From positions 1-64,000 of the forward strand of contig CAVYAN010000010.1 of assembly GCA_963766075.1 (NCBI GenBank): a stretch of DNA of 64,000 nucleotides. Direction: 5' to 3'. Made by a program: the position numbers and the translations under genes. Within the stretch, counting starts at the first letter, position 1; each line of letters starts with the position of its first letter. Under the pieces are notes generated by a model. The model saw nothing but the letters and a program-made list of their open reading frames with translations. It was not told the origin of the DNA and made no database searches. Shown piece after piece: positions 10,652-55,976 of the stretch. This stretch comes from an uncultured cyanobacterium (lineage in GTDB: Bacteria > Cyanobacteriota > Cyanobacteriia > Leptolyngbyales > Leptolyngbyaceae).

Positions 10652-10725
10652 GCTGCGGAGCGAGAATGTCTGCTGCCTATCACCACAGCACCACTGTGAA
10701 GCCACTTTAGGAGGTAACCCGCTGA

Positions 10726-10806
10726 CGGTTTGCTCTCAGTGATCCAATGCAGAATCCGATTGAAGACTTTTGGCAGCAGCCTAAACGGGGGTTACGGGCG
10801 TGTGAT
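10726..10806 (+). pseudogene. Degenerate IS630-type transposase C-terminal remnant
   Basis: Translates RFALSDPMQNPIEDFWQQPKRGLRACD, resembling the P..NPIE..W...K motif around the catalytic Glu. Confidence 0.5.
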
Positions 10807-11470: not shown

Positions 11471-11510
11471 AGATACCCAGAAATCCCCAGAGATACCCAG
11501 AAATACCTCG
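11471..11510. repeat. Imperfect 10-bp tandem repeat x4 in the AT-rich region upstream of the cluster
   Basis: agatacccag aaatccccag agatacccag aaatacctcg. Confidence 0.75.
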
Positions 11511-12184
11511 TGGTTGGATCTAGCCTGGTTTTAAGCGCTCTTTTTTGTGTGTAGAGTTAGTTTTTAGCGGTCGTAGAAACCAATGCTCTGAATCTCGTTG
11601 AGTTCTCAATCTATTTTTTCCTTGGTTTTGGAGTTTCTATTAAATGGAAGCTTAAGTGGCATTCTTTGAGTTGAGGATAGTGATTTGGTCGATGTTGAAC
11701 TATTGCTTTCCACCAAGTTTTGATAGGTTTAATGCCCATTTTATGTAGGCATCTAAAACTTATTCGGACAGTCACGTTAAGCATATTCACGCTTCCCTAG
11801 ACCCACTAATCCGTAAAGAGAGTGAGCGTGTAGACGCCTTTGCATTGCTACTCATCTGTCGTCTGGTTTGCCAGAGTGAGGGATGTTAGAGTTTTTCACG
11901 TACTGATTAATTGATCTGCAATTAAGATTCCTCGTCTCGAATGCGGACAGCTCCTTAGCATGGGCAGTTCTGTATTGTCTGTATTGAGTAGAGATCCTAT
12001 ATCTCTCTAGGTCAAGCCAGGTCAAACTGATTTTGACCAGTTTTTTCTGTCGATTAATCTGTCGATTAACAAGCATGTTTAGAAATATATCAACAGTGTT
12101 TTTCGTTACATGTATAGGTCGTTATGATGTGATTTTTAAAGTTCTACGTTAATCTCATTTACTGTTCTTGATGCTCTTCAAGCA

Positions 12185-15100
12185 ATGACTAAAATAGATT
12201 CACTTGTATCCCTGTTAGAATCTCGAGTTGAGCAGTTTGCAACTAAAAATGTATTTATCTTTTTAAACAATACGGATTCTCCGGAACCTACTAAGCTCAG
12301 CTACGAGGCGTTAGGATCGGCGGCTCGATCGATTGCAACTCACTTACAGGCTGCTAATGCTCAAAACGAGCGAGTTTTATTAATTTACAAACCAGGCTTG
12401 GAATTTATTACGGCTTTTTGGGGCTGTCTCTATGCGGGGGCGATCGCGGTGCCTGCTTATCCACCCCGTAAAAATGCTCACTTTGAAAGGTTGCAGGGAA
12501 TTCTGCACAGTGCCAAGGCAAAATTCGTCTTAACCACCCAACAGGGGTTGGAAAACTTTGCTCCCCAGGCTGAACAATGGCCGGAGTTGGCCCATGCTCA
12601 GTGGATCGCCACGGATGGTTTGAATGCGGCAGATGCAGAGCATTGGCAAAGGCCCGACATTTCGCCAGAACGGTTGGCCTTGCTGCAATACACCTCAGGC
12701 TCAACTGGGCAGCCCAAGGGGGTGATGATTCAACATCGTCATCTGTTAGCCAATTCCCAACTCATTCACCAGTGTTTTCAGGATACCCCCGATAGTTTTG
12801 GGGTCTGCTGGTTGCCGCCTTATCACGATATGGGGCTGATTGGCGGGATTCTTCAACCCATTTTTGTTGGCGCTTCCACTGTTCTAATGGATCCGGTGGC
12901 TTTTTTGCAGCGGCCATTGCGCTGGTTAGAAGCGATTAGCCGCTATCGGGCCTCTACGGCTGGGGGGCCTAACTTTGCCTACGCTCTGTGTGCTGACACG
13001 GTTAAACCCGAGGACTGCGCGCGTCTGGATTTAAGCGCCTGGAGGGTGGCATTTACAGGTGCGGAACCGATTCAGGCGGCAACCCTACGCCGATTTACAG
13101 AAAAGTTTGCGGCTTGTGGGTTTAGCGATACCGCTTTTCTGCCTTGTTATGGCATGGCTGAGGCGACCCTGATGGTGACGGGACTTCACCCAGGAGCGAC
13201 CCCTCAGGTCAAGACGGTTGAGACAGATGCCCTACGATCGCATCAAATCGTTGATGCCACTCTCGACAGTTCTCAGGTGACGGAATTGGTCAGTTGTGGT
13301 GCGCCCGTGGGATCAAGTACCGTGGAAATTGTCAATCCCGATACCCAACAGCGGTGTGAACCCGGTACGATTGGCGAAGTTTGGGTAGCCAGTGAGAGTG
13401 TGGCAGCGGGCTATTGGCAGCAGCCTGAACTCACCCAAGCCGCCTTTGGCGCACAGTTAAGTGAGCCGGCTGCTGGCCCCTTCTTGCGGACAGGAGATTT
13501 AGGCTTTTTGGCGGCTGGGGAACTCTTTATTACCGGACGCCTGAAGGAATTGATGATTATCCGGGGCCGTAACTTTTACCCCCAAGATATTGAACGGATC
13601 GTGCAGGCGGCACATCCTGCGCTCCGGCCTCATCATGGGGCGGCGTTTACGATCGCGCACAATGGCGAAGAACGATTGGTGGTCGTGCAGGAAGTGGAAC
13701 GGACTCACCTGCGCCAGCTTGATCCCGAAGCCGTCCTTAAGGCGGTGCGACGAGCGATCGCGGAAGAATTTGATCTCCAACTCCATGCCCTTGTGTTGCT
13801 GAAACCCGCACAATTGCCCAAAACGACCAGTGGAAAGGTGAAACGGTTGCGTTGTCGGGACAAGTGGCTAGCCCAAGATCTCGATCCGCTCTATCAGTCC
13901 ACGGTTGTCAGTCCAGATAGTGCGTCAGTGCCAGCCAGCCAGCCAGCGCCAGCCAGCCAGTCAGTGCCAACTAACCCGCCAGTTCCAACTAATCCGCCAG
14001 TTCCAACTAACTCGCCAACAATCCAGCCCCTTGCCGAATCGGCTTTTGGGTCGGAACGCGATCGCTGGCAGGCCCGCATCCAAGCTTGGCTGCTCAATCG
14101 GGTTTCTGAGCAACTGGGCGTAGCGCAGAACGAGATTAGTGTGCAGGATCCGCTAGCCGACTACGGTCTCAGTTCGTTAACGGCGATCCGGTTATCAGGC
14201 GAATTGCAAGATTGGCTGGAGATTCCCCTTGATCCCACTATTCTCTACGACTATCCGGCGATCTCTAACCTGGCTCAAACCCTAGCCTTACTCAAAACCC
14301 AAGCAGCAATCATCCACCGGGAAGAGACTGCCCTCGTATCACCCCAACAGCGGCGGCGGCGCACTGACTGTGATGTTGCGGTGATTGGCATGGGGTGTCG
14401 GTTCCCAGGAGCAGCCAATCCTGAAGCCTACTGGCAACTGCTGGTGAATGAGATTGATGCGATCACCGAAATTCCTCCCGATCGCTGGAATATTGATGCT
14501 TTCTATGATCCCAATCCTGGTAGTCCTGGGAAAATGAGTACCCGATGGGGCGGGTTTCTGCAAGGGGTGGATGGATTCGATGCTGCGTTCTTTAAGATTT
14601 CGGCGCGGGAAGCAGCCAGCATGGATCCGCAACAGCGGCTGTTATTGGAAGTGACCTGGCAGGCGTTAGAACAAGCTGGTTTGGTGCCGGAATCCCTTAG
14701 CGGTAGCCAAACGGGCGTGTTTATTGGGATTAGCAGTAATGATTATGGGCGGTTGATGCAATCCTCGCAGGCGTTGCCGGATCCCTATTCGGGCACTAGC
14801 CATGCCTTTAGCATTGCGGCAAATCGCCTCTCCTACTTGATGAATTGGCATGGGCCGAGCGTGGCGATCGATACGGCCTGCTCCTCCTCTTTAGTCGCAA
14901 TTCATCAAGCCTGTCAAAATCTGCGTTTACAAGAATGTAATTTGGCGGTAGCGGGTGGGGTGAATCTGATTCTCAATCCTGACTTGACCATTACCTTCTC
15001 TCAAGCCCACATGATGGCAGCGGATGGTCGGTGTAAAACCTTTGACGCAAAGGCTGACGGCTATGTGCGGGGTGAAGGCTGTGGCATTGTTGTATTGAAA

Positions 15101-18790: not shown

Positions 18791-18857
18791 GTTCTCGATT
18801 CGCTTAACTATAGGCATTGGTTATGTGTGATTCCACCTATATATTTCCTGGGCTTTT

Positions 18858-21800
18858 ATGATGAACAAAATCGCTTCAACTGATATTTCAACAACCAAAC
18901 GGGCGCTACTAGCAATCCAGGCGTTGCAATCTAAGTTGGAGGATGCCGAGCGGGTTCAGCATGAACCGATCGCCATTATCGGTCTAGGATGTCGGTTTCC
19001 GCAGGCTGACAACCCAGAGGCTTTCTGGACGCTATTGCAGACTGCCACGGATGCCATTACAGAGGTGCCGGTAAACCGCTGGGATCTAGAGTCGTTCTAT
19101 GATGCCAACCCTGATGCCCCAGGAAAAATCTACACTCGTTACGGGGGATTCTTAAACCAAGTCGATCAGTTTGACCCGAAATTTTTCAATATTTCACTCC
19201 GCGAAGCCCGCAGTCTCGATCCCCAACAACGGCTGCTCCTAGAAGTGAGTTGGGAAGCGTTGGAACAGGCTAACCAGGTTTCTGATCAGCTCTTTAAGAG
19301 TTCGACGGGGGTGTTTGTTGGCATTTCAACCAGTGATTATGCGCTGCGATCGGTCAAACAAGAAGATGTGCCGATCGATGCTTACTTTGGCACCGGCAAT
19401 GCCTTGAGTGTCGCCGCTGGGCGCTTATCCTATACCCTCGGGCTGACTGGCCCGAGTATGGCCGTTGATACCGCTTGCTCGTCGTCATTAGTGGCGGTAC
19501 ATTTGGCCTGCCAAAGTTTGCGGCAAGGGGAATGTCGCATGGCTTTGGCAGGCGCAGTGAACCTGCTGCTATCTCCCGAAAATTCGATCTCTACGTCTAA
19601 GGCCCGGATGCTAGCGGCCGACGGTCGATGCAAAACCTTTGATGCGCAAGCCAACGGCTATGTTCGCGGTGAAGGGTGCGGCGTAGTGGTGTTGAAGCGC
19701 TTGCGGGATGCGATCGCCGATGGCGATACCATTCTCGCGACCATTCGCGGTTCTGCAATCAACCAAGATGGCCCCAGTGGTGGACTTACCGTTCCCAATG
19801 GTCCAGCCCAACAGGCCGTGATTCGCCAAGCCCTCGCCCAGGCCCAACTTGATCCCAACCAGATTCAATACGTCGAAGCGCACGGCACGGGTACAGCGCT
19901 TGGCGATCCAATTGAATTGCAGGCACTCGGTGCGGTGTATGGGCAGGGTCGGGCGACCGATGTCCCGCTCATCGTTGGCTCCGCCAAAACGAATATTGGC
20001 CATCTGGAAGCCGCTGCTGGCATGGTCGGGCTGATTAAGTTGGTTCTGGCCCTTCAACATGAAGAAATTCCCGCCCATCTCCATTTTCAACAACCCAGTC
20101 CCCATATTCCTTGGGCTGATTTGCCCGTCACCATTCCTACCCGCAGTGTCCCCTGGACAGCGGGACAACAGCCGCGTCGGGCTGGACTCAGTTCCTTTGG
20201 TTTTTCTGGCACAAATACTCACTTGATTGTGGAAGAAGCCCCTCTCCCGGCTTCCCAGCAACGCACCAAAATCGATCGCCCGCTGCATGTCTTCACCCTG
20301 TCGGGTAAATCGGAAACCGCCCTGCCAGATCTGGCTCGACAGTATGCCAATTATCTAGCTACTCGATCAGACATTGATTTGGGTGATTTATGCTTGACGG
20401 CCAATGCCTATCGATCGCACTTCAAGTATCGCCTCGCGCTGACGGCCCAAAGCAGCTCAACCCTCCAAGCTGACCTCAACCGCATCGCCCAGGGGCAGTC
20501 TCCTGAGAACAGCGTGCAAAGCGATCAACCGATTCGGGGCGCGATCGCCTTTCTCTTCACGGGTCAAGGCTCCCAATATCCCGGCATGGGGCAGCAACTT
20601 TATCAAACGCAGCCCGTTTTCCGAGCGGCGTTGACGCAGTGCGCTGAGATTTTAGCGCCCGTCCTTGATATCCCGCTGTTGTCAATCTTGTACCCCGACT
20701 TATATCCTACGGAGCACTCACCGGACTGTATTCATGAAACGCGCTATGCCCAGCCAGCAATTTTTGCCCTAGAGTATGCCCTGGCTCAACTGTGGCAGTC
20801 CTGGGGAATTCGTCCCCATGCCGTAATGGGACATAGCCTCGGAGAATATGTCGCCGCCTGCATCGCTGGTGTGTTTAGTTTGGCCGATGGCTTAAACCTG
20901 ATTGCTCACCGGGCCAAATTGATGCAAGCGCTGCCGCCGAACGGATCAATGGTGGCCGTTCTGGCCGATGCTGACACTGTGACCCAGGCGATCGCGCCCT
21001 ACGCTGACCAGGTGAGTATTGCCGCCTTCAATGGGCCGCGAAATTTAGTCATTTCGGGGGTGGCCCAGGCTGTCGATGCCGTGGTGCAAACCCTCCAGAA
21101 CCAAGGCATTCAGGCCAAAAACTTAGCCGTCTCCCATGCATTCCATTCCCCCTTAATGGAACCCATGTTGGAGGATTTCCGCCGGGTTGCACAAAGCATC
21201 GCCTATACAGCACCCAACTTAGATTTGATTTCCAACCTGACAGGGAGGGCGATCGGCCCAGAAATTGCCACAGCGGATTACTGGGTACACCATGTGCGCC
21301 AGCCCGTGCAATTTACCCAGAGCCTCACCGCCCTGCTGGAACAAAGGCATGGCATTTTTCTGGAACTGGGGCCTAAACCCACCTTGTTAGGGATGGCCCA
21401 GAGAATTGAGCGATCAGCGCAGCCAGAGCGGTTATGGCTCGCGAGTCTGCGCAGTGAGGAAGACAACTGGCACACCATCCTGATGAGTTTAGGACAGTTG
21501 TTTGCCCGAGGGGTGGAAGTGGACTGGCTCAGCTTTGACCAACCCTATGGGCGACAACGGCTGACTGGATTGCCCACCTATCCCTTCCAGCGGCAACGCT
21601 ATTGGTTTGACGATGATCTAGCTCCCGTCAGCCAGCCCGTTAATGCGCCTGTTCCCGCTTCTATCCACACTCCCACGCCAATGTCATATCCTTCTCGCCC
21701 CCCCGATCATAGTCGGCAATTGCAGATCCTCACGTTTCTCCAAGAACAGGTGGGTAAACAACTCGTTGGAGCCGGTCGAAGGGTTGATCCTCAGGCATCC

Positions 21801-24800
21801 TTGCTGGAAATGGGAGCCGATTCAATTAATATGCTTGAGACGATTCAACTCGTCGATCAGATCTTTGGCATCGAGCTTTCAGTCCGGCAGTTTTTTGAAG
21901 AACTCTCAACTTTAGAGGCATTGGCAAATTATATTGACCAATCTTTGCCACTTTCCTGGGAACCCCCTAGTTCACATTTTTCAGCGTTTCATGCAATTCC
22001 TGCTGCTGCGTCTACACCGACTGCTACGCCTAGTGTTACACAAGCCGCTTCACCCCGCGCCTCATCGAATGCTGTACCGAACTTGAATGACGTATTTACT
22101 CAAGTCGAACAAATGCAACAGCAAGTGTCTTCGACTCAGGCGGAACTGCCATTAGTACGGGTCATCCAGGATCAACTGGCGGTATTGCAAACTGTCATGA
22201 TGGAGCAGCTATCAGCGCTCCAAGGCGAAACCCTGCGTCGTCCAGAGCTACATTCTGGTTCGACCCAAGTTGGGGGTTCATCTCGTTATCAAAATCGAAC
22301 GAACGATACGCCCGACAATGGACAGGACAATTTGCACAGTGGTAGTTATCGCAATGGCAATGGTAACGGAAAAGTTACTGGTAATGGCAGTATTCGTCAA
22401 GGTGATAGTGGAAATGGCGACACTCAAACTAATCTTAACCAAACAACAGATTCTGGAAGTATTGAAACGGAACTTAAAATAGTATCTCCGTCGATCGCCG
22501 CAAAATCGACGGTTTCTGCGATTGGGGCAGTGCATATCCCTTTAGCGGATCGCACATCCCCTCTCCCGCTCTCATTTGCCCAACAACGTTTGTGGTTCCT
22601 GCATCAGTTAGAGGGTTCTAGTGCCGCCTATAACCTTCCCTTTGCCCTCCGTCTCATTGGGGCGATCAAAATTTCAGCCTTAGAACAAGCGTTCGCAACC
22701 CTGTCAGAACGCCACGAATCTCTGCGAACGACATTTTGTCGAGTGGATAATCAGGACATTCAGATTATTCATCCACCTGCTGCAATCCCGATTGAGCAAG
22801 TGGATTTGCAGGCCCTTGATGATGATGCTAGAGTTCAGGCCGTGCAATATGCCAGTCAACAGGAGGCACAGTATAGCTTCGACTTAGAAGCTGGACCGTT
22901 GTTGCGGGTTGTCCTGCTGCGGCTCCAACCGGATGAGCACATTTTGTTGGTCACGATGCACCACATCGTCTCCGATGGGTGGTCAATGACGGTGTTTGCG
23001 CGGGAAATTCTGTTCTTGTATCAAACCTATGCCAATGGACAACCACTGCGCATACCACCGTTGTCAACGCAATATGCTGACTATGCAGTTTGGCAGCATC
23101 AATGGCTCCAGGGGGCTGTCCTGGAGGCAAAGTTAGAATATTGGCAGCGGCAACTAGCGGGCACTTTGCCCGTGATGGATCTGCCGTCCGATCGCCCGCG
23201 TCCAGCGGTTCGGACAGGTCAAGGCAATACTTTAAAATGGCAAATTTCAGAAACCTTAACCCATGATCTAGAACGGCTCAGTCAGCAGGAAGGAGTGACC
23301 CTCTTTATGCTGCTGCTGGCTGCGTTCAAAACCCTCCTGTATCGCTATACGGGGCAACCCAATATCTTGGTCGGGACGCCGATCGCAAATCGCAACCAGG
23401 CTGAGATTAAAGGTTTAATTGGCTTTTTTGTGAATACGCTGGTTCTGCGCACGGATCTGTCAGATGAACCCAGTTTTCGATCACTTCTCAGTCGAGTCCG
23501 CGAAGTCACTCTGGATGCCTATGCCCATCAGGAATTGCCCTTTGAAAAATTAGTGGAGGTACTCCAACCTGAGCGCAGTCTGAGCCATACGCCCCTGTTT
23601 CAGGTCATGTTTGTGCTGCAAAATGTCCCCCTCCAGCAACTGAAATTACCAAATTTGCAAGTGGAACAGCTAGAGGTTGGGAGCAGTGCCGCCCAATTTG
23701 ATTTAACGTTGGAGCTCACAGAGACAGAACAGGGATTAAAGGCGGCTTTGTCCTACAGTACCGATTTGTTTGATGCGACCACCATTACAAGACTGCTAGG
23801 ACATTTCCAATCGTTGTTGGAAAGTATTGTGGTCAATCCTAACCAGTCGCTGAGCCAGTTATCGATTTTGCCCCTGGCTGAGCGGCAGCAGATTGTGCAG
23901 GGGTGGAATGGGACGCAGGTCGAATTTACCGATAGTTTTCTACTGCATGGGGGGTTTGAAGCCCAAGTGCAGAAAACGCCTGACGCGATCGCCCTGATCT
24001 ACGAAAACCAAACCCTCACTTACTCCGAGTTAAACCAACGGGCCAATCAGTTTGCCCATCACCTCCATCACCACGGGGTCACCACGGATGTGCTGGTCGG
24101 CGTCTATGTCGAACGCTCCCCGGAAATGGTGATTGGCGTCTTAGCCATCGTGAAAGCAGGCGGTGCCTATGTTCCCCTCGACCCCACCTATCCCTCTGAA
24201 CGCATCGCCGCCATGATCGCCGATGCCCAGATGCCGATCATTCTGTCCCAAAGCCATTTGGCCAAGAATCTGCCCGATCATCAAGCCAAAGTGATTTGTT
24301 TAGACGATCCTACCAACGTGGCGACCGCTTCTACTGAAGACCTGAATCTTGTCCTGTCGCCCGACCAACTGGCCTATGTGATTTACACCTCTGGCTCCAC
24401 GGGCAAGCCCAAAGGGGTGATGATTTCCCACCGGGGGGCCGTCAACACCAACCTGGATGTCAATCAACGTTTTGGCATCCAGGTTGGAGATCGGGTGATT
24501 GGTCTGGCCTCTCTCAGTTTTGACCTCTCGGTTTACGATATTTTTGGCTTTTTGGCGGCAGGCGGGGCGATCGTCATTCCCCACGCCCAAGATGCCTTGA
24601 ATCCGAGCCAATGGTTACACCTGATGCACCAACATCAGGTCACCTTCTGGAACACCGCTCCCGCTGTGATAGAAATGCTGATGACCGCAGTCACGACGCA
24701 AGGCCAGCGCCTACCTGATTCCTTGCGGGTGGTGATGATGAGTGGCGATGCCATTTCAGTGGTCCTACCCGATCAAATTCGTAGTCATGCCCATCCTGCC

Positions 24801-33800: not shown

Positions 33801-35320
33801 ATGACTCCCAACTCCAGATGTTAATCGTCACAGCGGAGTTGATGTCTCGGTTCCCGCAGTTGAGTCCCCATGTTCACTGTTTGCACCTTGAGGCGATGGT
33901 ATCGGAACTCCAGTTGCAACCGCAAACCAATCCCACGAGTGCCGTTACTTCGACTCACCTCGCCTACGTAATTTATACGTCTGGTTCCACGGGCTTACCC
34001 AAGGGGGTCATGGTTGAACACAAGGGTTTGGGCAACTTAGCAGCCGCACAAATTCAGGCGTTTAACATAACGCCCCAGAGTTGTATCCTCCAGATGGCTC
34101 CCTTTAGTTTTGATGCCTCTGTGTCGGAGATTCTGATGGCGCTCTGTGCCGGAGCGCGGTTGGTGCTGGGTCACTACGATCAGTTATTGGGACAAGGTGA
34201 AATCCTGCAGCAACAGGGGGTTACCCACCTCACGATGCCGCCCTCTGCCCTCAGCATTCTGAGTTTAGAGGACTTAGCCGCCGTGGAGCATTTAATTGTC
34301 GCGGGCGAAGCCTGTTCGGCGGAATTGGTGGCGCAGTGGTCGCAACGGCCAGGGTTTTACAATGCCTATGGGCCAACGGAAGCAACTGTTTGTGCCACGA
34401 TCGCCAACTGTACCGAGACGCAGGCTAAACCCCCGATTGGTCGTCCCATCCAAAACGTCCAGGTTTACGTCGTCGATCAGCACCTGCAACCTGTTCCTGT
34501 GGGCGTTCCTGGCGAACTTCTGATTGGCGGTGTTGGGTTAGCACGGGGCTATCTACATCGACCCGAGTTGACGGCTGAGCGCTTTATTCCCCATCCCTTC
34601 TCCACGCAAGCCGATGAACGCTTGTATCGCACCGGAGATTTGGTGCGTTATCGCACCGATGGGCAGTTGGACTATCTCGGTCGCATCGATCATCAAGTCA
34701 AACTGCGCGGCTTCCGCATTGAATTGGGCGAAATCGAATCTGTATTGCGCTCCCATGCCGATGTGCAAGATGCTTTTGTCATCGTGCAAACGGCCCAGCC
34801 CGGGAGTCAACTTCTGACGGCCTATATTGTTCCCCATGCCCAAGCCCCAAGCGTTGAAGACTTGCAGCAACTGGTTGTCGATCGCCTGCCCCAGTACATG
34901 GTACCCGCTGCCTTTATTGTCTTAGCGGCGCTCCCGCTCACGCCCAATGGCAAGGTTGATCGCAAGGCGTTGCCGATTCCTGACACCCATCAGGTCATAC
35001 GCCAAACTGAGTTCGTCGCCCCCCGTAACGCTACCGAGGAAACCCTGGCGCAGGTCTGGGCCGAATTATTGGGGCTGGAGACCATCGGCGTGATGGACAA
35101 TTTCTTTGAACTTGGGGGGCATTCCTTGTTAGCCCTCCAGGTGATCGCCCGGATTCAGAAACTATTCCAGGTTCAAGTCCAGTTACAGCCGCTGTTTGAG
35201 CAGCCCACGATCGCCCAATTGGCCGATCTGATTTTAACTGAGCAGATGCTTCAGACCGATGACGACATCCTGGCGCAACTACTTGCCGAAGTAGAAGCCC
35301 TTCCCGAGGAAGACGCATAG
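18858..35320 (+). CDS. Hybrid PKS/NRPS megasynthetase KS-AT-ACP-(C-A-PCP)x4, probably one gene of about 5,490 aa interrupted by 3 indels and 1 in-frame stop
   Basis: ORFs 18858, 27302, 28210, 30329 and 31061 join inside A domains. AT has GHSLG and HAFH (malonyl); ACP MGADS; four HHxxxD C domains; four GGHSL PCPs. A codes read by hand: DLYNMSFIWK, DAEDIGTVVK, DILQLGLVWK, DASTIAAVCK. Confidence 0.88.
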
Positions 35321-35398
35321 CACATTCAGTTTAATTCTCTGTCTTGTTAAATTTTCTGTTTTGCCCATCCAGTTCACCCTATTCTCCCTGTTGAGTTC

Positions 35399-38300
35399 AT
35401 GTCAAACCTTGCCGATCGCCTTGCCACTCTCTCCCCGGCCAAACGTGCCCTGTTACTGCAAAAACTTCAAGCAGAAAATGCCGATCGCGGATCGGCAGCC
35501 TTGACAATTCCAGTCGCCGATCGCACCCAAACTTTGCCCCTGTCTTTTTCCCAACAGCGGTTGTGGTTTCTTAGTCAGTTTGAGGGCAGTCAGTCGGCCT
35601 ATAACATTCCCATCGCCCTAAAATTGACAGGGCACCTGCAAGAATCGGCATTATTGCAAAGTTTAAATCTCCTGGTGGAGCGCCACGAAGTCCTCCGCAC
35701 CCATTTTGCTCTGAAGCAGGGCGAACCCATTCAGATCATTGCCGATCGCTTATCTCTCCCCCTCGAGCGCTTAGACTGGCAAGCACTCACGACCGAGCAA
35801 GTCGAACCGCAGTTGACAGAACTCTTACAACAGGTCGCCCAGCACGCCTTTAATCTTCAACAAGGCCCCCTGTTTCGCATTGTTCTCATTCAGGTCGCCC
35901 CCAGCGTTCATTATTTAGTTGCGGCCTTCCACCATGTCATCACAGATGCCTGGTCGATGAATGTTCTGGTTCAAGAACTCATGGTCCATTACAGCGCCTT
36001 TGCCCAGGGGCAGTCGTCTCCCCTGCCTCCCCTGACGATTCAATATGCAGATTATGCCGTGTGGCAACGGCAGTGGCTAACCGAAGCAACGGCCACTGAA
36101 CAGTTAAGCTACTGGAAAGATCAATTGCGCGGCCTGTCGCCGTTATTGGAATTACCCACCGATCGGCCCCGCCCCCCCATTCAAAGTTTTAACGGTCGCT
36201 CCTTCGTCAAACATCTGGATTCCCACCTCACCCGCGAGTTAAAGGCACTCGCTAACAGCACCGGGGGGACGCTATTTATGGTGCTAGAAGCGGCCTTTGC
36301 ACTGTTGTTGAGTCGCCTCAGTCGCCAAACCGATATTGCCATTGGGACCCCCAGCGCTAACCGCAGCACCTACGATCTCGAACCCCTGATTGGTTTCTTC
36401 ATCAATACCCTGGTGTTGCGTAATGATTTAGACGGCAACCCCACCGTCCGGGAACTTCTGCAACGCACTAAGCAGATGGCTCTGGATGCCTATCGACACC
36501 AAGATATTCCGTTTGAGCATTTAGTCGAGGCCATCCAACCCGCTCGCACCATGAGCCATAGCCCCGTCTTTCAGGTGATGTTTGGTCTCCAAAATACACC
36601 CTCGACCACGTTAGAACTGCCCCAACTGACCTTGACTCCGGTTCCCTTGCCGAGTGAAACTGCTAAGTTTGACTTGACGTTGATCATGAATGAAACGGCT
36701 GATCACCTAGAGGCGACCTGGGAATATAACTGCGACTTATTTGACGCCGCTACCCTCGATCGCTGGGCGGGTCATTTTCAAACGCTGTTGAGCCAGATGG
36801 TGCAACAGCCTGATGCGCCGATTTCAACCCTGGCGCTGCTATCGTCCCCTGAGCACCAACAGATTGTCTATGACTGGAATGCGACTGCGGTTGAGTATAC
36901 CGATACGTTCTTGCTGCACGCTGGCTTTGAGCAACAGGTAGAACAAACGCCCGATGCGATCGCCCTGCTCTACGAAGACCAAACCCTCACCTATGCTGCC
37001 CTCAACGATCGGGCCAACCAGTTTGCCCAGCACCTCCGTCAGCAGGGGGTCACAACGGATGTGCTGGTGGGTGTGTATGTTGAGCGATCGCCGGAAATGA
37101 TCATCGGTGTTCTGGCCATTCTGAAAGCGGGTGGTGCTTACGTCCCCCTCGACCCCACCTATCCCTCTGAGCGAATTGCCGACATGATCGCCGATGCTGA
37201 AATGCCCATTCTACTGACTCAAAGTCACCTAGTTGAGCAGCTTCCGGGGCATCAAGCCCAAGTGATTTGCTTGGACGAACCCGCTACGGTTGCCGCTAAT
37301 TCGACGGCAAATCTCCCGCTATCGCTGTCGCCTGACCAACTGGCCTACGTGATTTATACCTCCGGGTCAACCGGCAAACCCAAGGGTGTGATGATCTCCC
37401 ACCGAGGAGCTGTCAATACTAACTTGGACATTAACCAGCGGTTTGGGATTGGCCCTGGCGATCGGGTGATTGGTCTGGCCTCCTTAAGTTTTGACCTATC
37501 GGTCTACGATATCTTCGGGTTCCTGGCAGCGGGGGGCACGATCGTCATTCCCCACCATCGGGATGTACTCAATCCCTCCGCTTGGATCCAACTGATGCAC
37601 GACCATCAAGTCACCTTTTGGGATACGGCTCCCGCTGTGATGGAAATGCTAATGACCTACGTCAGCAGTCAGGCATTGCGGTTACCCGATTCCTTGCGCG
37701 TGGTGATGATGAGTGGTGATGCGATTTCCGTCACCTTGCCCGATCAAATCCGCCGTCATGCCCAGCCACAAATCCAGGTCTATAGTTTTGGCGGTGCGAC
37801 AGAAGGGTCGATCTGGTCGATTTACTACCCGATCGCCCAGGTCGAGCCTGACTGGACCAGTATTCCCTACGGTAAACCGTTGTCCAATCAGCATTTTCAT
37901 ATTCTGGATGCCCATCTCAACCCGGTGCCCATTGGGGTTGCAGGAGAACTCCACATTGGGGGCACGGGGGTGGCCTTGGGCTACTTTAAGCGCCCTGAAC
38001 TGACGGCCCAACGGTTCATTCCTGACCCCTTTTTCCCAGCGCCCCAGGCCCAGTTGTATAAGACGGGCGATATGGGCCGCTATCTCCCCGATGGCACGAT
38101 CCAGTTTCTTGGGCGGATTGACCATCAGGTCAAAATTCGCGGGTTCCGGATTGAGTTGGGTGAAATTGAAGCGGCGGTGACGCAGCATCCCGGTGTCCGT
38201 GAGGCCGCAATTTTGGTGCGGGAGGATCAACCCGGCAGTAAGGTATTGTGCGCTTACGTGGTGCCCCAACCCCGTGAAACCGTGGAAGTTGCTGCACTGC

Positions 38301-38827
38301 GGCAGGCTTTACGGCAAAAACTCCCCGATTACATGGTGCCAGCCTTCATCCTGTTGCTGGAAGAACTCCCCTTAACCAGTAATGGCAAGGTTGATCGCAA
38401 GGCATTACCCCAACCCGATGCGGGTTCTACGACTGAGCAGGGCGCAATCGCCCTACCCCAAACCCAATTAGAACGGCAAATTGCCCAAATCTGGGCAGAA
38501 CATTTGCAAGTTAATCCCATTGGGTTGCAGGACAACTTTTTTGACCTGGGCGGACATTCCTTACTCATGGTCAAAATCTTCAGCGATTTACAGACAGCCC
38601 TCCAAACCGAGGCAAATGCGGCATTAAACATTGAACTGAGCATTGTTGATTTGTTTCAGTTTCCGACCATTGCCACCCTGGCCAATCATTTACAACATCG
38701 GCAAACTCAAGTCTCGGCCACAGCCCAGGCCCAACAACGAACGGAGGTGCGCACCAGCCAGCAGTCTACCGCCCTGCAACGGCGGGCCTTACGGCAGCAG
38801 TCCCGATCGTTAACTGAAGATGATTAA
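35399..38827 (+). CDS. Single-module NRPS C-A-PCP with a Cys-clade A domain
   Basis: HHVITDAWS, YTSGSTG, FDLSVYD, GGATEGSIWS and GGHSL; code DLYDMSFIWK; N-terminal docking-like LATLSPAKRALL. Confidence 0.93.
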   Translation: MSNLADRLATLSPAKRALLLQKLQAENADRGSAALTIPVADRTQTLPLSFSQQRLWFLSQFEGSQSAYNIPIALKLTGHLQESALLQSLNLLVERHEVLRTHFALKQGEPIQIIADRLSLPLERLDWQALTTEQVEPQLTELLQQVAQHAFNLQQGPLFRIVLIQVAPSVHYLVAAFHHVITDAWSMNVLVQELMVHYSAFAQGQSSPLPPLTIQYADYAVWQRQWLTEATATEQLSYWKDQLRGLSPLLELPTDRPRPPIQSFNGRSFVKHLDSHLTRELKALANSTGGTLFMVLEAAFALLLSRLSRQTDIAIGTPSANRSTYDLEPLIGFFINTLVLRNDLDGNPTVRELLQRTKQMALDAYRHQDIPFEHLVEAIQPARTMSHSPVFQVMFGLQNTPSTTLELPQLTLTPVPLPSETAKFDLTLIMNETADHLEATWEYNCDLFDAATLDRWAGHFQTLLSQMVQQPDAPISTLALLSSPEHQQIVYDWNATAVEYTDTFLLHAGFEQQVEQTPDAIALLYEDQTLTYAALNDRANQFAQHLRQQGVTTDVLVGVYVERSPEMIIGVLAILKAGGAYVPLDPTYPSERIADMIADAEMPILLTQSHLVEQLPGHQAQVICLDEPATVAANSTANLPLSLSPDQLAYVIYTSGSTGKPKGVMISHRGAVNTNLDINQRFGIGPGDRVIGLASLSFDLSVYDIFGFLAAGGTIVIPHHRDVLNPSAWIQLMHDHQVTFWDTAPAVMEMLMTYVSSQALRLPDSLRVVMMSGDAISVTLPDQIRRHAQPQIQVYSFGGATEGSIWSIYYPIAQVEPDWTSIPYGKPLSNQHFHILDAHLNPVPIGVAGELHIGGTGVALGYFKRPELTAQRFIPDPFFPAPQAQLYKTGDMGRYLPDGTIQFLGRIDHQVKIRGFRIELGEIEAAVTQHPGVREAAILVREDQPGSKVLCAYVVPQPRETVEVAALRQALRQKLPDYMVPAFILLLEELPLTSNGKVDRKALPQPDAGSTTEQGAIALPQTQLERQIAQIWAEHLQVNPIGLQDNFFDLGGHSLLMVKIFSDLQTALQTEANAALNIELSIVDLFQFPTIATLANHLQHRQTQVSATAQAQQRTEVRTSQQSTALQRRALRQQSRSLTEDD

Positions 38828-38837
38828 ACACTTCATC

Positions 38838-38885
38838 GTTTGGGGCTTGACGTTGGCGGGTACGCTGCCTGCTCAGCCCCCAAAC
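38838..38885 (+). other. Intergenic stem-loop between the NRPS and terminal PKS genes
   Basis: GTTTGGGGCT...AGCCCCCAAAC with an internal GGCGGG/CTGCC stem; no poly-T tail. Confidence 0.4.
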
Positions 38886-38972
38886 CAAATTCCCTCGCTT
38901 CCAGGCAGCGCCTAAAGACCGAAGGAACCGCTTAGTTTTCACCTTTCAGCAGGGCAACGAGGAGTAATCAAA

Positions 38973-41900
38973 ATGGATGGGATTGACCCAGGTATGTCAG
39001 AGACAATTTCAGACCCCTTAACCGAGATTTCTGCCACCAATATCGCCATTATTGGGATGGCAGGGCGGTTTCCGGGTGCCAAAAATGTTGAGGAATACTG
39101 GGATAATCTTCAAGCTGGCCGTGAAGGCATTAAGTTCTTCTCGGATGATGAGTTAAAAGCGGCGGGGGTTCCGGCCTATCAGTTGAAGCAGGCCAATTAC
39201 GTTAAAGCGGGGGGCGTGTTAGACGATGCGGAACTATTTGATGCCAACTTCTTTGGTTTTAGCCCTAAGGAAGCCCAGATCATTGATCCGCAACATCGCC
39301 TATTTTTAGAGCAGGCATGGACCGCTTTAGAACATGCAGGCTATAACTCCAACACCTATCGGGGGGCGATCGGGGTTTATGTCGGCGTGGGGATGAATAC
39401 CTATCTGTTGCGATCGCTCTATCCCCATCTGCTCACTTCGGCTGAGTTGGATAGCTATCAGGTGCAAATCCGCAATGATAAGGATTTTCTGCCCACCTTA
39501 GTATCCTACAAACTCAATCTGCGGGGACCGAGTCTCTCGGTTCAGACGGCCTGTTCAACTTCACTGGTAGCAGTGCATTTAGCCTGTCAAAGTTTGCTCA
39601 ACGGCGAGTGCGACATGGCCTTGAGTGGAGGTGTAACAGTCTTTGTCAACCCCACGGGCTATGTCTACAGTGAAGGGATGATTTTGTCCCCCGATGGCCA
39701 TTGTCGGGCCTTTGATGCTAAGGCCCAGGGCACTGTGGGCGGCAATGGGGTCGGTGTGGTAGTGCTGAAGCGGTTGGCGGATGCGATCGGCGATCGCGAT
39801 ACGATCTACGCCGTGATCAAAGGCTCAGCAGTCAATAATGATGGCACGGCCAAGGTGGGTTATACCGCGCCCAGCATCGAGGGACAAGCGGCTGTAATCA
39901 CCGAGGCCCAGGCGATCGCGGATACGCCTGCGGATACGATCAGCTATGTGGAAACCCACGGAACTGGGACTACGCTTGGCGATCCGATCGAAATCGCCGC
40001 CCTAACTCAAGCCTTTCGCCACACAACGACCAAAAACCAGTTTTGTGCCATTGGTTCCGTTAAAACCAACATTGGTCACTTAGATACTGCGGCTGGCGTC
40101 GCCAGTTTAATTAAAGTTGCCCTCGCCCTAAAACACAAAGCGATTCCACCGAGTCTCCATTTTGAGTCGCCGAACCCAGCCATTAACTTTGTCCACAGCC
40201 CCTTTTTCGTCAACACGCAACTGACCCCTTGGCCCGCCACCGATACCCCACGTCGGGCCGGAGTCAGTTCCTTTGGGATTGGCGGCACCAATGCCCATGC
40301 TATTGTCGAAGAAGCTCCTTCCGAGACGCTTGAACCGGGTGGGGCCAGTCGCCCTTGGCACCTGCTCGTGTTATCGGCTAAGTCAGAAACTGCCCTCACT
40401 CAACAACGCCAAAACCTCGCTGATTATTTGAGCCAACAGCCCACCGTTTGTTTGGCGGATGTTGCCTTTACCCTCGCCCAAGGCCGACAAGAATTTGCCC
40501 ATCGCTGGATGGGGTTGGTGCAAACGTCAGAAGCAGCGATTCAGACCCTGCAAGCTCCCCCGTCTGGTACAACCTTCCAGGTTCAGGCCAATCGCACCTC
40601 GGTGGTGTTTCTGTTTCCAGGACAAGGCGCTCAAGTCATTAACATGGGTCGCGACCTATACAAACATGAACCCGTATTTCGAGAGGCACTAGATACCTGT
40701 GCACAACTGCTCTTGCCCGACTTGCAGGATGATTTGCGGCAATTGCTTTATCCAAAAGCCGATTCCCCGGTTGATATTAACCAAACGCAATGGGCGCAAC
40801 CCCTCTTATTCTCGGTGGAATATGCCCTCGCGCAACTTTGGTTGAGTTGGGGGATCAAGCCAGAAGCGATGATTGGCCATAGTTTAGGAGAATATGTCGC
40901 TGCTTGCTTGGCGGGAGTTTTTAGTCTGGAAGAGGGCCTCTGGTTAGTTGCCCAGCGGGCCAAGTTGATGCAGCATCTGCCTCCAGGAGCAATGTTGGCG
41001 ATTCCGGGCACGGAGGCTGAGATCACTCCCTGGCTGCGGGATGGGGTGGTGCTGGCCGCCACCAATGGCGGCATTTGTACGGTGTCAGGGGAGTTGAGTG
41101 CGATCGCCGACTTAGAGCACCAACTCACCGCCGCTGGACAATCGGTGACACGCTTGCAGACTTCCCATGCGTTCCACAGTCCCTTAGTCGAATCCATGGT
41201 GGCGGATTTTCGCCACCTGCTGCAACAAATTTCTTTCCACGCTCCCCAGCGCACCTACCTGTCCAATGTAACCGGCACCTGGATTACCGCTCCCGAAGCG
41301 ACGGATCCCGAGTATTGGATCCAGCACCTCCGCCAGACTGTACGGTTTGGGGAAGCGGTAGCCCAATTGTTACCTGATCCGAACTGGATCTTTCTTGAGG
41401 TTGGCCCTGGGCGTACCTTGACGGCCTTAGTGCGTCGCCATCCCAACTATACCCAGGCCCAGCCTTTGCTGAATAGCCTCTTGACGACAGCGACGGCCTA
41501 TCTAACGGAGCCTCAGCATGTGCTCCAGACCTTGGGCCAATTGTGGCTCCATGGTGTGACGCCGAAATGGCAACGGTTCTATGCCAACGATAACTGCCAC
41601 CGCATTCCTCTCCCAACCTATCCGTTTGAGGGCCAACGCTACTGGATTGATCCTCCCCAGGGCAGCGCGCTGACCCTGAACTTTGGGCTAGCGCGCAATC
41701 CTGATCCGAGTCGCTGGTTCTACGCCCCCTCGTGGAAACAGCTACCGCCCCTCTCTTTACAACCCTTGGCAACCGATGACTGTTGGTTGCTGTTAATCGA
41801 TCGGATGGGGTTGGGCACTGCCCTAGCGGAATCCCTCAAAGCGGCGGGTCAGCGGGTCGTGACGGTGGCCTACGGCGATCGCAAATTTTGGCAATCCGCC

Positions 41901-44636
41901 GACCATGTCGTGAAAGTCGGTGATACTGCCAGCTTTGAACGGTTACTGCTCACCCTCCAGGTCCGCCAGCACTGGCCGCAGCACATCCTGCATCTATGGA
42001 GTCTCGATCCTGGGGCAGCAGATCTCAGGCTCGACACCGTGGCCAAGCAGACCGAAGCGGGATTACATGCGCTCTTATCTTTAGTGCAAGCGATCGGCAA
42101 GGTGGGGCAACCCCAGCCATTACAACTCAGTGTGATCACAAATGGGTCCTACAACCTACTGGGAACGGAATCCCTCAAGCCGCTGAAAAGTCTGCTGCTG
42201 GGGGCGGTGAAAGTAATTCCGCAGGAGTATGCTCAGCTATCCTGTCGCTACGTCGATCTTGAGGAGGTGTTTCCCCATGCTGTATCCCGCTCCCAATGGC
42301 TGCAAACGTTGTTGACGGAGTTAACGACTCCCGAGGCACCTCAAGAAGTCGCCTATCGCGGTCGATCGCGCTGGATTCCTACCTACGAGCCCATATCTTT
42401 ATCTGAGCCAGAGGACAATCCCCGGTTGCGATCGCAGGGCGTTTATCTGATTACCGGCGGCTTGGGCGGAATCGGATTAACCCTCGCCCATCACTTGGCT
42501 CAGACCGTTCAGGCTCGCTTGGTTCTCGTGAGTCGCTCTCCCTTTCCGGCCCGACGCCACTGGGCCTATTGGTGTTTGACCCATCCCAAAGAGGACCCCA
42601 TCAGCCAAAAGATTTACCGACTGCGGGAGCTAGAAGCCTACGGAGCAAAAGTGTGGGTCGAGCAGGCCGATGTCACTGATCACGCTTCACTGGAACCCCT
42701 GGTGGCTTCAATAGAAGCGGTTTTTGGCCCCATTCATGGAGTCATTCACTGTGCGGGGATGGCGGATTTTGGTGGGATTATTCAAGGCCGCAACCGCAGT
42801 GATACTGATCGCATTCTAGCCGCGAAAGTGACAGGCACATTGGTGTTGGATCGGGTCTTCCGCAACCGGCCCCTCGACTTTTGGGTGATGAGTAGCTCCT
42901 TGGGAACGGCCCTCTATAAAACCCTGTTTGGTCAGGTCGGTTACAGTGCGGCTAACGAGTTTTTAAGTGCTTTTTGTGAGTACAAGCAACAGACCACCCA
43001 AACCTTCACGGTCGCCATTCATTGGACCGAGTGGGATGAGGTGGGAATGGCGGTTGATTCCCGCGCAGAGCGCCTAAAAACCAAGGCCCGGGCCGAAGAA
43101 GAACAAAATTGGTTAGTTGCCCTTACCCCCGAAGAAGGTGCAGATGCCTTTGGGCGAATCTTAAATCAGCCTCAAGCCCGAATCGCCGTATCCATTCAGG
43201 ATTTGCAGCAATTATTGCAACAGCAAGCCCAGTGGAGCACCAATCAATTTTTGGAGTCCCTTACTCTGGAACCGGACACCAACCAACCCAAGCAACAGCG
43301 GCCTGAGCTAGCAACGGCCTATATGCCCGCCCAGACCCAGCTAGAAGCCCTGCTGATTGACCACTGGGAAACCTATCTTGGTATTGCACCCTTGGGACTA
43401 GACGACAGTTTTTACGATTTGGGGGGCGATTCTTTGCTTGCCTTGGGGTTACTGGCCCAAATCCAGAAAAAGCTGTCGGTTAATATCCCGATGACAGCCT
43501 TGTTAGAAATCCCCACTGTGGTCGGATTGGTCACCTATCTGCAAACTCATGCCGCTGACACGATCGCCCAGTGGCTTATCCCACTCGAATCCACGCAACC
43601 AGAATCAACCATGGCTCCCCTCCCTAACGACGCCTTCTCTACCCCAGCACCCTCTCAGCCGACTGCACACCCCCCGGATGCGCGCATCCCCCAGCCCCTA
43701 GCCTATCCAACCCCAATGGCGATGACCCAACTGACGACCCCAGCTCAGCCTGTGGCTCGGCCTGTCGCTCCCGTCGTTGCTCGACTCCAAGCGGGTAGCC
43801 CCCAACATCCGCCCTTGTTTTTTGTCCATCCTATCGGGGGCGGCATTAGCTGCTACAGCCCGTTAGCACGCCATCTCAATCGGGATTGTCCTTTCTACGG
43901 ATTGCGGGCGATCGGTCTCGATCAGGAAGCGCCACCGCTAGCTGATGTGCCCCAAATGGCGGCCTGTTATATCCAGACCATCCGCACCATTCAGCCTCAA
44001 GGTCCTTACTACCTTGGAGGGTGGTCGATGGGCGGAGTCGTAGCCTACGAAATGGCCCTCCAACTGTTTCAATTCGGTGAATCGGTATCGGGGTTGATCT
44101 TAATTGACAGTCCAGCCCCAGTGGCAACGCCTCGCGATCCGGCGATCGATTTTACGGTCTTTGCTAGAGGATTGGGCTTCTGCCCAGAGCAAGTGGACGC
44201 CTTTAGTCAGTTGTTACAATCTGATTCAACCGCCCTCGATATGACCCTCCAGCGGTTACTGACAGAAGGTCAACGCATCGGCCTGCTACCCCAAAGTTTT
44301 GCCCTGGCACAGCTCCAGCAACTTTATACTGTGTTCAACGCCCATAGTTTAGCGTTAAGTAACTATACGGCGGCGATCTGTCCTCAGCGGCTACCCACGC
44401 TGTTGCTCCAAGCCAAAATTGCTGATCATTCAATGTTTAGCCGCTTAGGACCGCAAGTGGCTGATCACTGGACCAAACTCTTGGGCCGATCGCCCTTGAT
44501 TCGGAACCTGCCAGGTGATCATTACACCTTGGTCACCGAACCCCAGGTAGCACTGCTGTCCACTCATCTCAACAGTTTTCTATGTCAAATTAAACCATCT
44601 GGGCGGACTGTGGCCGCAACCAGTTTCTCACCCTAA
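38973..44636 (+). CDS. Terminal PKS module KS-AT-KR-ACP-TE
   Basis: Post-NRPS-type KS (NDKD, VQTACSTS, ETHGTGT, IGHLD); AT GHSLG/HAFH; KR TGGLGGIG and GYSAAN; ACP LGGDSL; TE GWSMGG and GDHY. Confidence 0.93.
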   Translation: MDGIDPGMSETISDPLTEISATNIAIIGMAGRFPGAKNVEEYWDNLQAGREGIKFFSDDELKAAGVPAYQLKQANYVKAGGVLDDAELFDANFFGFSPKEAQIIDPQHRLFLEQAWTALEHAGYNSNTYRGAIGVYVGVGMNTYLLRSLYPHLLTSAELDSYQVQIRNDKDFLPTLVSYKLNLRGPSLSVQTACSTSLVAVHLACQSLLNGECDMALSGGVTVFVNPTGYVYSEGMILSPDGHCRAFDAKAQGTVGGNGVGVVVLKRLADAIGDRDTIYAVIKGSAVNNDGTAKVGYTAPSIEGQAAVITEAQAIADTPADTISYVETHGTGTTLGDPIEIAALTQAFRHTTTKNQFCAIGSVKTNIGHLDTAAGVASLIKVALALKHKAIPPSLHFESPNPAINFVHSPFFVNTQLTPWPATDTPRRAGVSSFGIGGTNAHAIVEEAPSETLEPGGASRPWHLLVLSAKSETALTQQRQNLADYLSQQPTVCLADVAFTLAQGRQEFAHRWMGLVQTSEAAIQTLQAPPSGTTFQVQANRTSVVFLFPGQGAQVINMGRDLYKHEPVFREALDTCAQLLLPDLQDDLRQLLYPKADSPVDINQTQWAQPLLFSVEYALAQLWLSWGIKPEAMIGHSLGEYVAACLAGVFSLEEGLWLVAQRAKLMQHLPPGAMLAIPGTEAEITPWLRDGVVLAATNGGICTVSGELSAIADLEHQLTAAGQSVTRLQTSHAFHSPLVESMVADFRHLLQQISFHAPQRTYLSNVTGTWITAPEATDPEYWIQHLRQTVRFGEAVAQLLPDPNWIFLEVGPGRTLTALVRRHPNYTQAQPLLNSLLTTATAYLTEPQHVLQTLGQLWLHGVTPKWQRFYANDNCHRIPLPTYPFEGQRYWIDPPQGSALTLNFGLARNPDPSRWFYAPSWKQLPPLSLQPLATDDCWLLLIDRMGLGTALAESLKAAGQRVVTVAYGDRKFWQSADHVVKVGDTASFERLLLTLQVRQHWPQHILHLWSLDPGAADLRLDTVAKQTEAGLHALLSLVQAIGKVGQPQPLQLSVITNGSYNLLGTESLKPLKSLLLGAVKVIPQEYAQLSCRYVDLEEVFPHAVSRSQWLQTLLTELTTPEAPQEVAYRGRSRWIPTYEPISLSEPEDNPRLRSQGVYLITGGLGGIGLTLAHHLAQTVQARLVLVSRSPFPARRHWAYWCLTHPKEDPISQKIYRLRELEAYGAKVWVEQADVTDHASLEPLVASIEAVFGPIHGVIHCAGMADFGGIIQGRNRSDTDRILAAKVTGTLVLDRVFRNRPLDFWVMSSSLGTALYKTLFGQVGYSAANEFLSAFCEYKQQTTQTFTVAIHWTEWDEVGMAVDSRAERLKTKARAEEEQNWLVALTPEEGADAFGRILNQPQARIAVSIQDLQQLLQQQAQWSTNQFLESLTLEPDTNQPKQQRPELATAYMPAQTQLEALLIDHWETYLGIAPLGLDDSFYDLGGDSLLALGLLAQIQKKLSVNIPMTALLEIPTVVGLVTYLQTHAADTIAQWLIPLESTQPESTMAPLPNDAFSTPAPSQPTAHPPDARIPQPLAYPTPMAMTQLTTPAQPVARPVAPVVARLQAGSPQHPPLFFVHPIGGGISCYSPLARHLNRDCPFYGLRAIGLDQEAPPLADVPQMAACYIQTIRTIQPQGPYYLGGWSMGGVVAYEMALQLFQFGESVSGLILIDSPAPVATPRDPAIDFTVFARGLGFCPEQVDAFSQLLQSDSTALDMTLQRLLTEGQRIGLLPQSFALAQLQQLYTVFNAHSLALSNYTAAICPQRLPTLLLQAKIADHSMFSRLGPQVADHWTKLLGRSPLIRNLPGDHYTLVTEPQVALLSTHLNSFLCQIKPSGRTVAATSFSP

Positions 44637-54717: not shown

Positions 54718-54752
54718 GCCGGATCTCCTTCAGTGTTAATGAGTGCATCCTT

Positions 54753-54980: not shown

Positions 54981-55058
54981 TATTGACCGGATTACAAAAA
55001 CTTAGTGCAATCACAAAAGAAGAAAATCCTAACCTATTGCAACTTTACAATCTTCTTT

Positions 55059-55945: not shown

Positions 55946-55976
55946 GTACGGATTCATCCGGTGGAATCTGACACTG

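Follow-up and report, generated by a model that had tools for sequence, protein, structure and literature searches.

A FAAL-primed PKS-NRPS-PKS gene cluster in a Leptolyngbyaceae genome, predicted to make an exported lipopeptide with a cysteine-derived thiol end

The stretch of DNA analyzed here (the window; 64,000 nucleotides of contig C10, CAVYAN010000010.1) comes from an uncultured cyanobacterium of the family Leptolyngbyaceae, whose genome assembly (GCA_963766075.1, here G000) comprises 5.05 Mb in 126 contigs and is rated 85% complete. On its + strand lies a 39-kb gene cluster (12185-51473, exporter genes included) in which a FAAL-primed assembly line of polyketide synthase (PKS) and nonribosomal peptide synthetase (NRPS) modules is followed by an exporter. 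The assembly line itself is real. From its sequence, we propose that the line and the exporter make a secreted lipopeptide with a fixed Tyr-Cys-ketide thiol end and a swappable cap, a reading to which we assign a probability of about 0.55. The cluster appears to represent an orphan, patchily spread lipopeptide family that joins standard enzymatic parts to an unusual predicted end group. In agreement with an earlier annotation of this DNA (the original prediction), which did not recognize a characterized cluster, no code, cluster or compound matching it turned up in the literature searched, a search whose scope excluded MIBiG and most subscription journals.

Architecture of the assembly line

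Domain mapping with Pfam and NCBIfam bore out the module order that had been proposed: a FAAL start, two PKS modules (the first with a KR, the second with none), five C-A-T modules, and a closing KS-AT-KR-ACP-TE. The stated lack of E, MT, Cy, Ox and halogenase functions also held, as none was matched in the open reading frames (ORFs) of the cluster. The five C domains, one per module, all carry HHxxxD and none is of the Cy type (C1 has HHIVSD, C5 has HHVITD); read by eye, their motifs are LCL-like. The C/H/H motifs are intact in all three KS domains, AT2 and AT3 contain GHSxG and HAFHS, the conserved Ser is present in all nine carrier domains, and the TE has its GWSMGG/D/H motifs. The original prediction placed the end of the cluster at 44636; this is correct for the core line, but the unit runs on to 51473 through four exporter genes that are kept in relatives.

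AT1 differs from the other AT domains: it is truncated (Pfam span 3-140 of 319), and GDGFGE replaces GHSxG. The same truncation is found in two other genomes that carry the cluster, G257 and G429 (see below). Given the truncated AT1 in all three genomes and the roughly 80% identity that KS1 retains between G000 and G429, module 1 probably functions with malonyl provided in trans.

The linker between ACP2 and C1 is about 250 amino acids long. Within it, a short coil just after ACP2 (window about 22200-22290; residues about 1115-1145 of the ORF that starts at 18858) is kept in three clusters, and the linker around it is divergent. We take this coil to resemble the segment that precedes the aminotransferase in modules of the microginin/puwainaphycin type, and it may be the remnant of a lost domain. 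No aminotransferase family was matched in the cluster ORFs by Pfam or NCBIfam.

Relatives of the cluster

The cluster is shared with genomes of the same class. A signature pattern was scanned for in 90 genomes of the order to which the window belongs, in 48 of the order of genome G041, and in 401 of the class; it was present in 1 (G000 itself), 2 and 3 of these, respectively, with two occurrences in G000 and a single one in each of G257 and G429. G257 holds the whole cluster in the same gene order: FAAL-ACP-KS-AT-DH-ER-KR-ACP, then basic-basic-Gly-Tyr modules, the Cys-type module, the PKS-TE, and the four exporter genes. In G429 the FAAL, KS-AT-KR-ACP, basic-Tyr modules, Cys-type module, PKS-TE and exporter are spread over four contigs. 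Across the three genomes, the Tyr module, the Cys-type module, the PKS-TE end and the exporter are conserved, and a basic residue module lies upstream of Tyr-Cys in every case; the cap and the reduction in module 1 vary. Module 1 of G257 (G257:C7, 7437-16121) has a DH and an ER, which those of G000 and G429 lack: members of a single family have naturally gained or lost reductive domains.

G257 and G429 each have one Cys-type module, and both have a basic residue module where A1 stands in G000. Over the linker, C1, A1 and T1, G000 and G257 are 25-47% identical, compared with 57-74% in later modules, and the first module of G000 therefore appears to have been replaced. C1 is 40% identical to C1 of G257 and 48% to C5. 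A1 is 85% identical to A5 in amino acids and 76.5% in nucleotides, and is 85% identical to P0127; no closer copy of it exists in the genome. Misassembly or a recent duplication of A5 was considered as the origin of A1 and ruled out on the 76.5% nucleotide identity and on the low identity of C1 to C5 (48%) and to C1 of G257 (40%). These comparisons indicate that the additional Cys module is genuine and of some age, and that it is not general in the family. A contig from run X2 (see below) shows an A domain of the basic type one module before C2, which suggests tandem basic modules in a close relative, with room for a Cys module further up.

The stand-alone Cys-type module recurs in at least six further protein clusters (81-86% identity; best 120 of 8,000 scored), always after HHxxxD C domains; part of these clusters correspond to proteins of G257 or G429 or to near copies. 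Searches with A3, the second gene of G257 and A1 returned no further whole family members, and their matches, mostly long multi-module proteins, have no bearing on absence. A JGI metagenome scan gave a single match (32%). A 58% match in G004 was set aside as a stand-alone Cys module with other neighbors. With the TE, no match outside G000 among the 401 genomes exceeded 43%, one in G716 was rejected as belonging to another cluster type, and no diagnostic relative was found in these genomes, in the Atlas or in the PDB. The genes that flank the cluster differ between genomes, and its GC content equals that of the genome. The patchy spread and the differing flanks suggest that the cluster moved horizontally.

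Substrates predicted for the A domains

Specificity codes were read by motif, and the positions of A4 were verified on a GrsA alignment. The codes of A2, A3 and A4 (Table 1) are as originally given. Those of the two Cys-type domains are not: in place of DLYN(L/M)SLIWK, we read DLYNMSFIWK in A1 and DLYDMSFIWK in A5, so that both pockets have Phe rather than Leu at position 322, and A5 also has Asp at 278. DLYNMSLIWK stands among the Cys codes of PMC12283262, and the A1 pocket equals it but for position 322. Asp278 is also present in four otherwise canonical Cys-type domains. Among solved structures, the A5 pocket region is nearest to BmdB, PchE and 6LTA, another NRPS. BmdB and PchE, both of which we take to be Cys loaders, have Leu at 322. 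The core of A5 shares 56% identity with Cy-linked Cys-type domains (n=19) and 25% with other A domains (n=208), compared with 34% and 45%, respectively, for its N-terminal part, and we therefore regard A5 as a Cys core in a C-linked frame. P0205, a basal, stand-alone C-A-T relative (73%; 64% to A5) and a possible outgroup cluster, has the canonical DLYNMSLIWK after a normal C domain. Together, these comparisons make Cys the likely, and the best, substrate call for the Phe322 pockets.

The closest solved relative of A2 is ApnA A1, which presumably prefers Arg and Tyr. A2 fits the Arg consensus of PMC12283262 except at positions 322 and 331, and DGEDHGTVVK, listed under Lys in the same source, is identical to it at 8 of 10 positions. 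A2 is predicted to load a basic residue, either Lys or Arg. From established codes and from likeness to DILQLGMIWK and GrsA, A3 is predicted to load Gly and A4 Tyr. None of six code strings matched in the supplement of PMC12283262, whose code tables may bear on A1, A2 and A5.

Judged by motif, two or three Cys-clade A domains after HHxxxD-type C domains also occur in unrelated NRPSs (P0366, P0371, P0387, P0415, P0429, P0436, P0455, P0456 and P0471), and multi-thiol peptides may be commoner than assumed.

Frame breaks in the second gene

The original prediction called the line complete-looking. This is true once three frameshifts and one in-frame TGA are allowed for; as assembled, the second gene is split. 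We compared the frames with contigs of four runs (X1-X4) from four studies, which represent relatives and share no more than 0.43 of words. At the site near 27291 the frame is intact in contigs of X1, X2 and X3 (X4 has no cover there), and at the frameshift sites near 28275 and 30402 it is intact in all four; the comparison covers these three sites and stops before the TGA. The G257 homologue of the second gene is a single open frame of 5,426 amino acids.

As an assembly-wide control, 129 conserved genes were checked, of which 15 were flagged and 11 proved to be true breaks upon inspection, the other 4 being dropped because their stops lay outside the true gene. Over the roughly 157 kb surveyed, 12-13 break events were counted, one of them an in-frame stop, which sets the background at about 1 per 13 kb; among the broken genes are an acetyl-CoA-synthetase-like and an RNase-R-like gene, named by sequence reading. 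The reverse control flagged 6 of 124 genes and is confounded, as in 4 or 5 of them it is G000's own frame that is broken or overhanging. Since contigs of relatives keep the frame and the genome shows about one break per 13 kb, we conclude that the four breaks are very probably assembly errors. If instead they were real, the cluster would be decaying in the source strain. The four breaks are confined to 3.8 kb of the 32-kb line, the runs compared come from relatives rather than from the source strain, and a transposase adjoins the cluster, each of which would fit decay. Against this, the same assembly breaks 11 of 129 conserved genes, the background predicts about 2.6 breaks in the line compared with the 4 seen, one break sits in a G run, and catalytic motifs are intact everywhere but in AT1; we therefore regard decay as quite improbable.

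Positions 25500-26253 of the window have low or no cover in the four runs, to which we gave no weight by itself. Outside the cluster, a GTPase-domain gene (4893-6808) has at least one frameshift, near 6360, relative to its homologue in G017, likely an assembly error.

Predicted product and mode of action

With the second gene read as one frame, the line can be followed from module to module. The FAAL would load a fatty acid, module 1 would extend it with malonyl, probably supplied in trans, and reduce it to a hydroxyl in G000 or fully in G257, and module 2 would leave a 3-oxo group. The NRPS modules would then add Cys, Lys/Arg, Gly, Tyr and Cys, as predicted from their codes. The last module would carry out a malonyl extension, KR reduction and TE release, which would turn the final Cys into 4-amino-3-hydroxy-5-mercaptopentanoyl, a statine-like thiol unit. 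The predicted product of G000 is thus 5-hydroxy-3-oxo-acyl-Cys-(Lys/Arg)-Gly-Tyr-(4-amino-3-hydroxy-5-mercaptopentanoyl), which would leave the cell through the dedicated DevBC/MFS-DevA system. With Lys and a C8, C10 or C12 starter, the linear dithiol acid has a computed [M+H]+ of 829.383, 857.415 or 885.446; a disulfide would lie 2.016 below these values and a cyclized product 18.011 below, and the Cys-ketide residue would be C5H9NO2S (147.035). The acyl-Cys-basic-Gly-Tyr-Cys-ketide proposed originally remains a reasonable colinear reading for G000, given the closeness of A5 to BmdB and PchE and the canonical code of the 73% relative; its Lys may instead be Arg.

Because only the terminal thiol/hydroxy/carbonyl unit is fixed across genomes, we take it to be the working end. 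By analogy, its likeliest role would be that of a metal-binding group that acts on zinc enzymes of neighbors or grazers, or that chelates a soft metal, although we hold this mode of action with low confidence.

If the proposed reading is true, the family yields a thiol-bearing statine-type unit that is absent from the literature searched, and its natural variants, which differ in the number of Cys (one or two), in their caps and in a hydroxy or saturated acyl group, would show how swapping modules tunes an end that stays fixed. G257 would provide an intact copy for expression, and the family a small test case for the A-domain code, with Leu322 changed to Phe and Asn278 to Asp. Many orphan clusters of this kind exist, and this one is a good mining target more than a surprise.

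Alternative explanations

Several points weigh against a fixed thiol end as proposed. Phe322 occurs in 11 of the 419 Cys-clade A domains compared, all 11 from this cluster family, and is absent from the other 408, and the Phe322 pocket code was not found in the literature searched, so that the substrate could differ from Cys. Only three clusters are readable, and the fragmented G429 copy has a gap where a contig ends within the Tyr domain. P0127 and P0129 are closer to G000 and might share its first Cys, and the proposed mode of action is drawn by analogy. The Phe322 pockets might instead load a small non-Cys residue (Ala, Ser or similar), giving a product without thiols. The confinement of Phe322 to this family, the Leu at this position in BmdB and PchE, and the lack of a sulfur-handling enzyme conserved alongside the cluster would all fit such a substrate, but the remaining pocket residues of A1 are those of the published Cys code (PMC12283262), and the basal relative P0205, with the same C-A-T build, has the canonical code; we thus judge a thiol-free product unlikely. 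A separate alternative, compatible with Cys, concerns release: instead of a free acid, the TE could give a cyclic end, whether an N-acyl hydroxy-pyrrolidinone or pyrrolinone, a six-membered thiolactone in which the thiol would be masked, or a macrolactam on the Lys side chain. In cyanobacteria, lines that close with an amino acid module and a PKS-TE form pyrrolinones, and for dolastatin 15 the TE itself is the proposed cyclase (PMC13643306); the basic residue upstream of Tyr-Cys in all three clusters could serve the lactam. Conversely, the cluster has neither an O-methyltransferase nor a stand-alone C domain like JamQ, which is an alternative route to a pyrrolinone end (PMC2799420), A2 may select Arg, which would exclude the lactam, and the TE sequence has no diagnostic relative. 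A cyclic end is therefore a tentative possibility. A macrolactone on the module-1 hydroxyl would not be general, being excluded for G257 by the DH and ER in its module 1.

The original prediction further proposed, as what the cluster is made for, a scaffold that a CxxxC disulfide closes and redox conditions activate, on the model of FK228 and spiruchostatin. In G000, two Cys-type A domains do flank three residues, and A1 has the canonical Asn278 and has kept its pocket despite 76.5% nucleotide identity to A5, so that it looks maintained; spiruchostatin also contains a statine-type unit. This purpose is not supported, as G257 and G429 have a single Cys-type module each, the X2 contig suggests tandem basic modules in a close relative, there are no E domains, and the order of parts is the reverse of that in FK228. 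Known disulfide products depend on oxidases (DepH, GliT, HlmI) that carry a CP(L/Y/F)C motif (PMC4894451). No such oxidase was found in the cluster, and the motif had 0 matches in the six frames of G000, an assembly that is 85% complete and error-prone; the six-frame scan yielded one ordinary TrxR. We also considered the nearby DsbA-like gene (53243-53920) as the cluster's oxidase and rejected it, since it lacks CxxC and is part of an ArsR/rhodanese/PetC block, which G257 carries on a separate contig and which was not detected in G429. A disulfide is not the defining chemistry of the family, and a cluster built for one is improbable. An intramolecular disulfide formed by air and masking the thiol, as an add-on of G000 only, is a possibility, though less likely than not, and members with one Cys could, by analogy, dimerize like somocystinamide A. 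The fuller picture, in which a Phe322 module and the terminal PKS-TE give the secreted family an invariant, zinc-binding, Cys-derived statine warhead with free thiol, hydroxyl and carbonyl groups under a swappable cap, and in which G000, having exchanged a basic module for a second Cys, makes a convergent FK228-like disulfide prodrug without a dithiol oxidase, is likewise unlikely. The reading that we prefer remains a secreted lipopeptide with a fixed Tyr-Cys-ketide thiol end and a swappable cap.

Comparison with known systems

The predicted family resembles the FK228/spiruchostatin/burkholdac/thailandepsin group in its hybrid PKS-NRPS line, its non-cyclized Cys and its polyketide-extended Cys thiol (PMC13324335, PMC4894451). 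Both combine a conserved part with a variable peptide part, as described for the HDAC-inhibiting depsipeptides with their constant pharmacophore and changing cap (PMC13324335), here in reverse order: in the FK228 group the thiol pharmacophore is made first, through a Cys-primed NRPS-PKS (PMC13324335), and the cap last, whereas here the line starts with FAAL-ACP-KS and the Cys-ketide comes last. Furthermore, D-residues arise in that group through E or dual E/C domains, and the disulfide through DepH, whereas here no epimerization domains (motifs read by eye) and no DepH were found. The Cys-ketide predicted here also keeps its nitrogen in the chain, unlike the thiol unit of FK228.

Lipopeptide lines of the microginin, puwainaphycin and laxaphycin types begin with FAAL-ACP, have a KS-AT-ACP fused to an NRPS, and come with a dedicated exporter. 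The FAAL-ACP loading, PKS and NRPS modules, and release domain of cyanobacterial FAAL-primed PKS/NRPS lipopeptides are all found here. The line differs from the microginin/puwainaphycin type in having no aminotransferase or monooxygenase, and a 3-oxo rather than a 3-amino acyl group is therefore predicted; it differs from all three types in ending with a PKS-TE after a Cys-type module. In the extension of the last amino acid by a terminal PKS with a TE, it resembles the dolastatin 15 and jamaicamide lines (PMC13643306, PMC2799420). In contrast to these, the last residue is of the Cys type, a KR is present, and neither a Dol15G-like O-methyltransferase nor a JamQ-like gene occurs in 12185-52955; a methyltransferase at 2844-3707 has no counterpart beside the G257 cluster.

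Somocystinamide A is a cyanobacterial lipopeptide with a non-cyclized cysteine, isolated as a disulfide dimer (PMC12193938, PMC10077240). No gene cluster for it was found in the literature searched. Its residues and end group reportedly differ from those of the product predicted here. Among Lys-Gly-Tyr lipopeptides, FAAL-disulfide cyanobacterial products, and pyrrolinone or statine ends, the same literature held no matching compound, nor did it hold a thiol-bearing cysteine-statine unit. A thiazoline metallophore of the yersiniabactin/pyochelin kind was rejected, since the Cys modules follow C rather than Cy domains.

Feature map, exporter and flanking genes

Table 1. Positions of the cluster's genes, A domains, frame breaks and borders in the window
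Feature	Position	Strand	Remarks
FAAL-ACP-KS-AT (truncated, no catalytic Ser)-KR (LED motif, B-type-like)-ACP	12185..18790	+	predicted loading and first extension (Pfam, NCBIfam)
One PKS/NRPS gene: KS-AT-ACP-linker-C1-A1-T-C2-A2-T-C3-A3-T-C4-A4-T	18858..35320	+	about 5,485 codons; five ORFs in assembly
A1	23913..25460	+	Cys-type pocket DLYNMSFIWK, after normal C domain
A2	27150..28650 (approximate bounds)	+	DAEDIGTVVK; basic residue (Lys or Arg) predicted
A3	30330..31822 (approximate start)	+	DILQLGLVWK; Gly predicted
A4	33521..34975	+	DASTIAAVCK; Tyr predicted
Stand-alone C5-A5-T5	35399..38827	+	A5 Cys-type pocket DLYDMSFIWK
KS-AT-KR (no LDD)-ACP-TE	38973..44636	+	predicted last extension and release; 65% to G257; kept in G429/L007
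DevB-family membrane fusion protein	44651..45838	+	TIGR02971 above cut-off; kept in G257 and G429
DevC permease 1	45875..47017	+	TIGR01185 above cut-off; kept in G257 and G429
DevC permease 2	47024..48199	+	TIGR01185 above cut-off; kept in G257 and G429
MFS transporter, DevA ATPase, 162-bp repeat and receiver domain in one ORF	48216..51473	+	fusion also in G257 and G429
Frameshift near 27291, within A2	27285..27295	+	in G run; likely assembly error
Frameshift at about 28273-28282, second within A2	28270..28285	+	likely assembly error
Frameshift near 30402, start of A3	30400..30406	+	likely assembly error
In-frame TGA within A3	31046..31048	+	G257 open at same position
Transposase	51729..52955	+	right border; flank, not biosynthetic
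AT-rich 1.5-kb intergenic region 5' of first gene	10652..12184	.	likely regulatory

The repeat in the exporter fusion (50533-51088; 3.4 copies, 95%) lengthens its linker in G000; the MFS-DevA-receiver fusion is a frame of 913 amino acids in G257 and of 916 in G429. As a guess, the receiver on the exporter ATPase could make export phosphorylation-gated.

Downstream of the cluster, positions 53243-63964 hold genes for a DsbA-like protein (no CxxC), a PetC-type Rieske protein, DUF4079, two rhodaneses, an RND pump, DUF3122 and ArsR. Several of these genes, the DsbA-like, PetC and DUF4079 ones among them, have homologues (63-80%) grouped on G257:C110 with no linkage to the cluster, and the block looks like a shared sulfur-handling island. 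Directly upstream is a gene for a B12-dependent methionine synthase (7025-10651); neither G257 nor G429 has this gene next to its cluster. Two tandem DDE_3 transposase ORFs of 262 amino acids stand at the contig start (21-1852).

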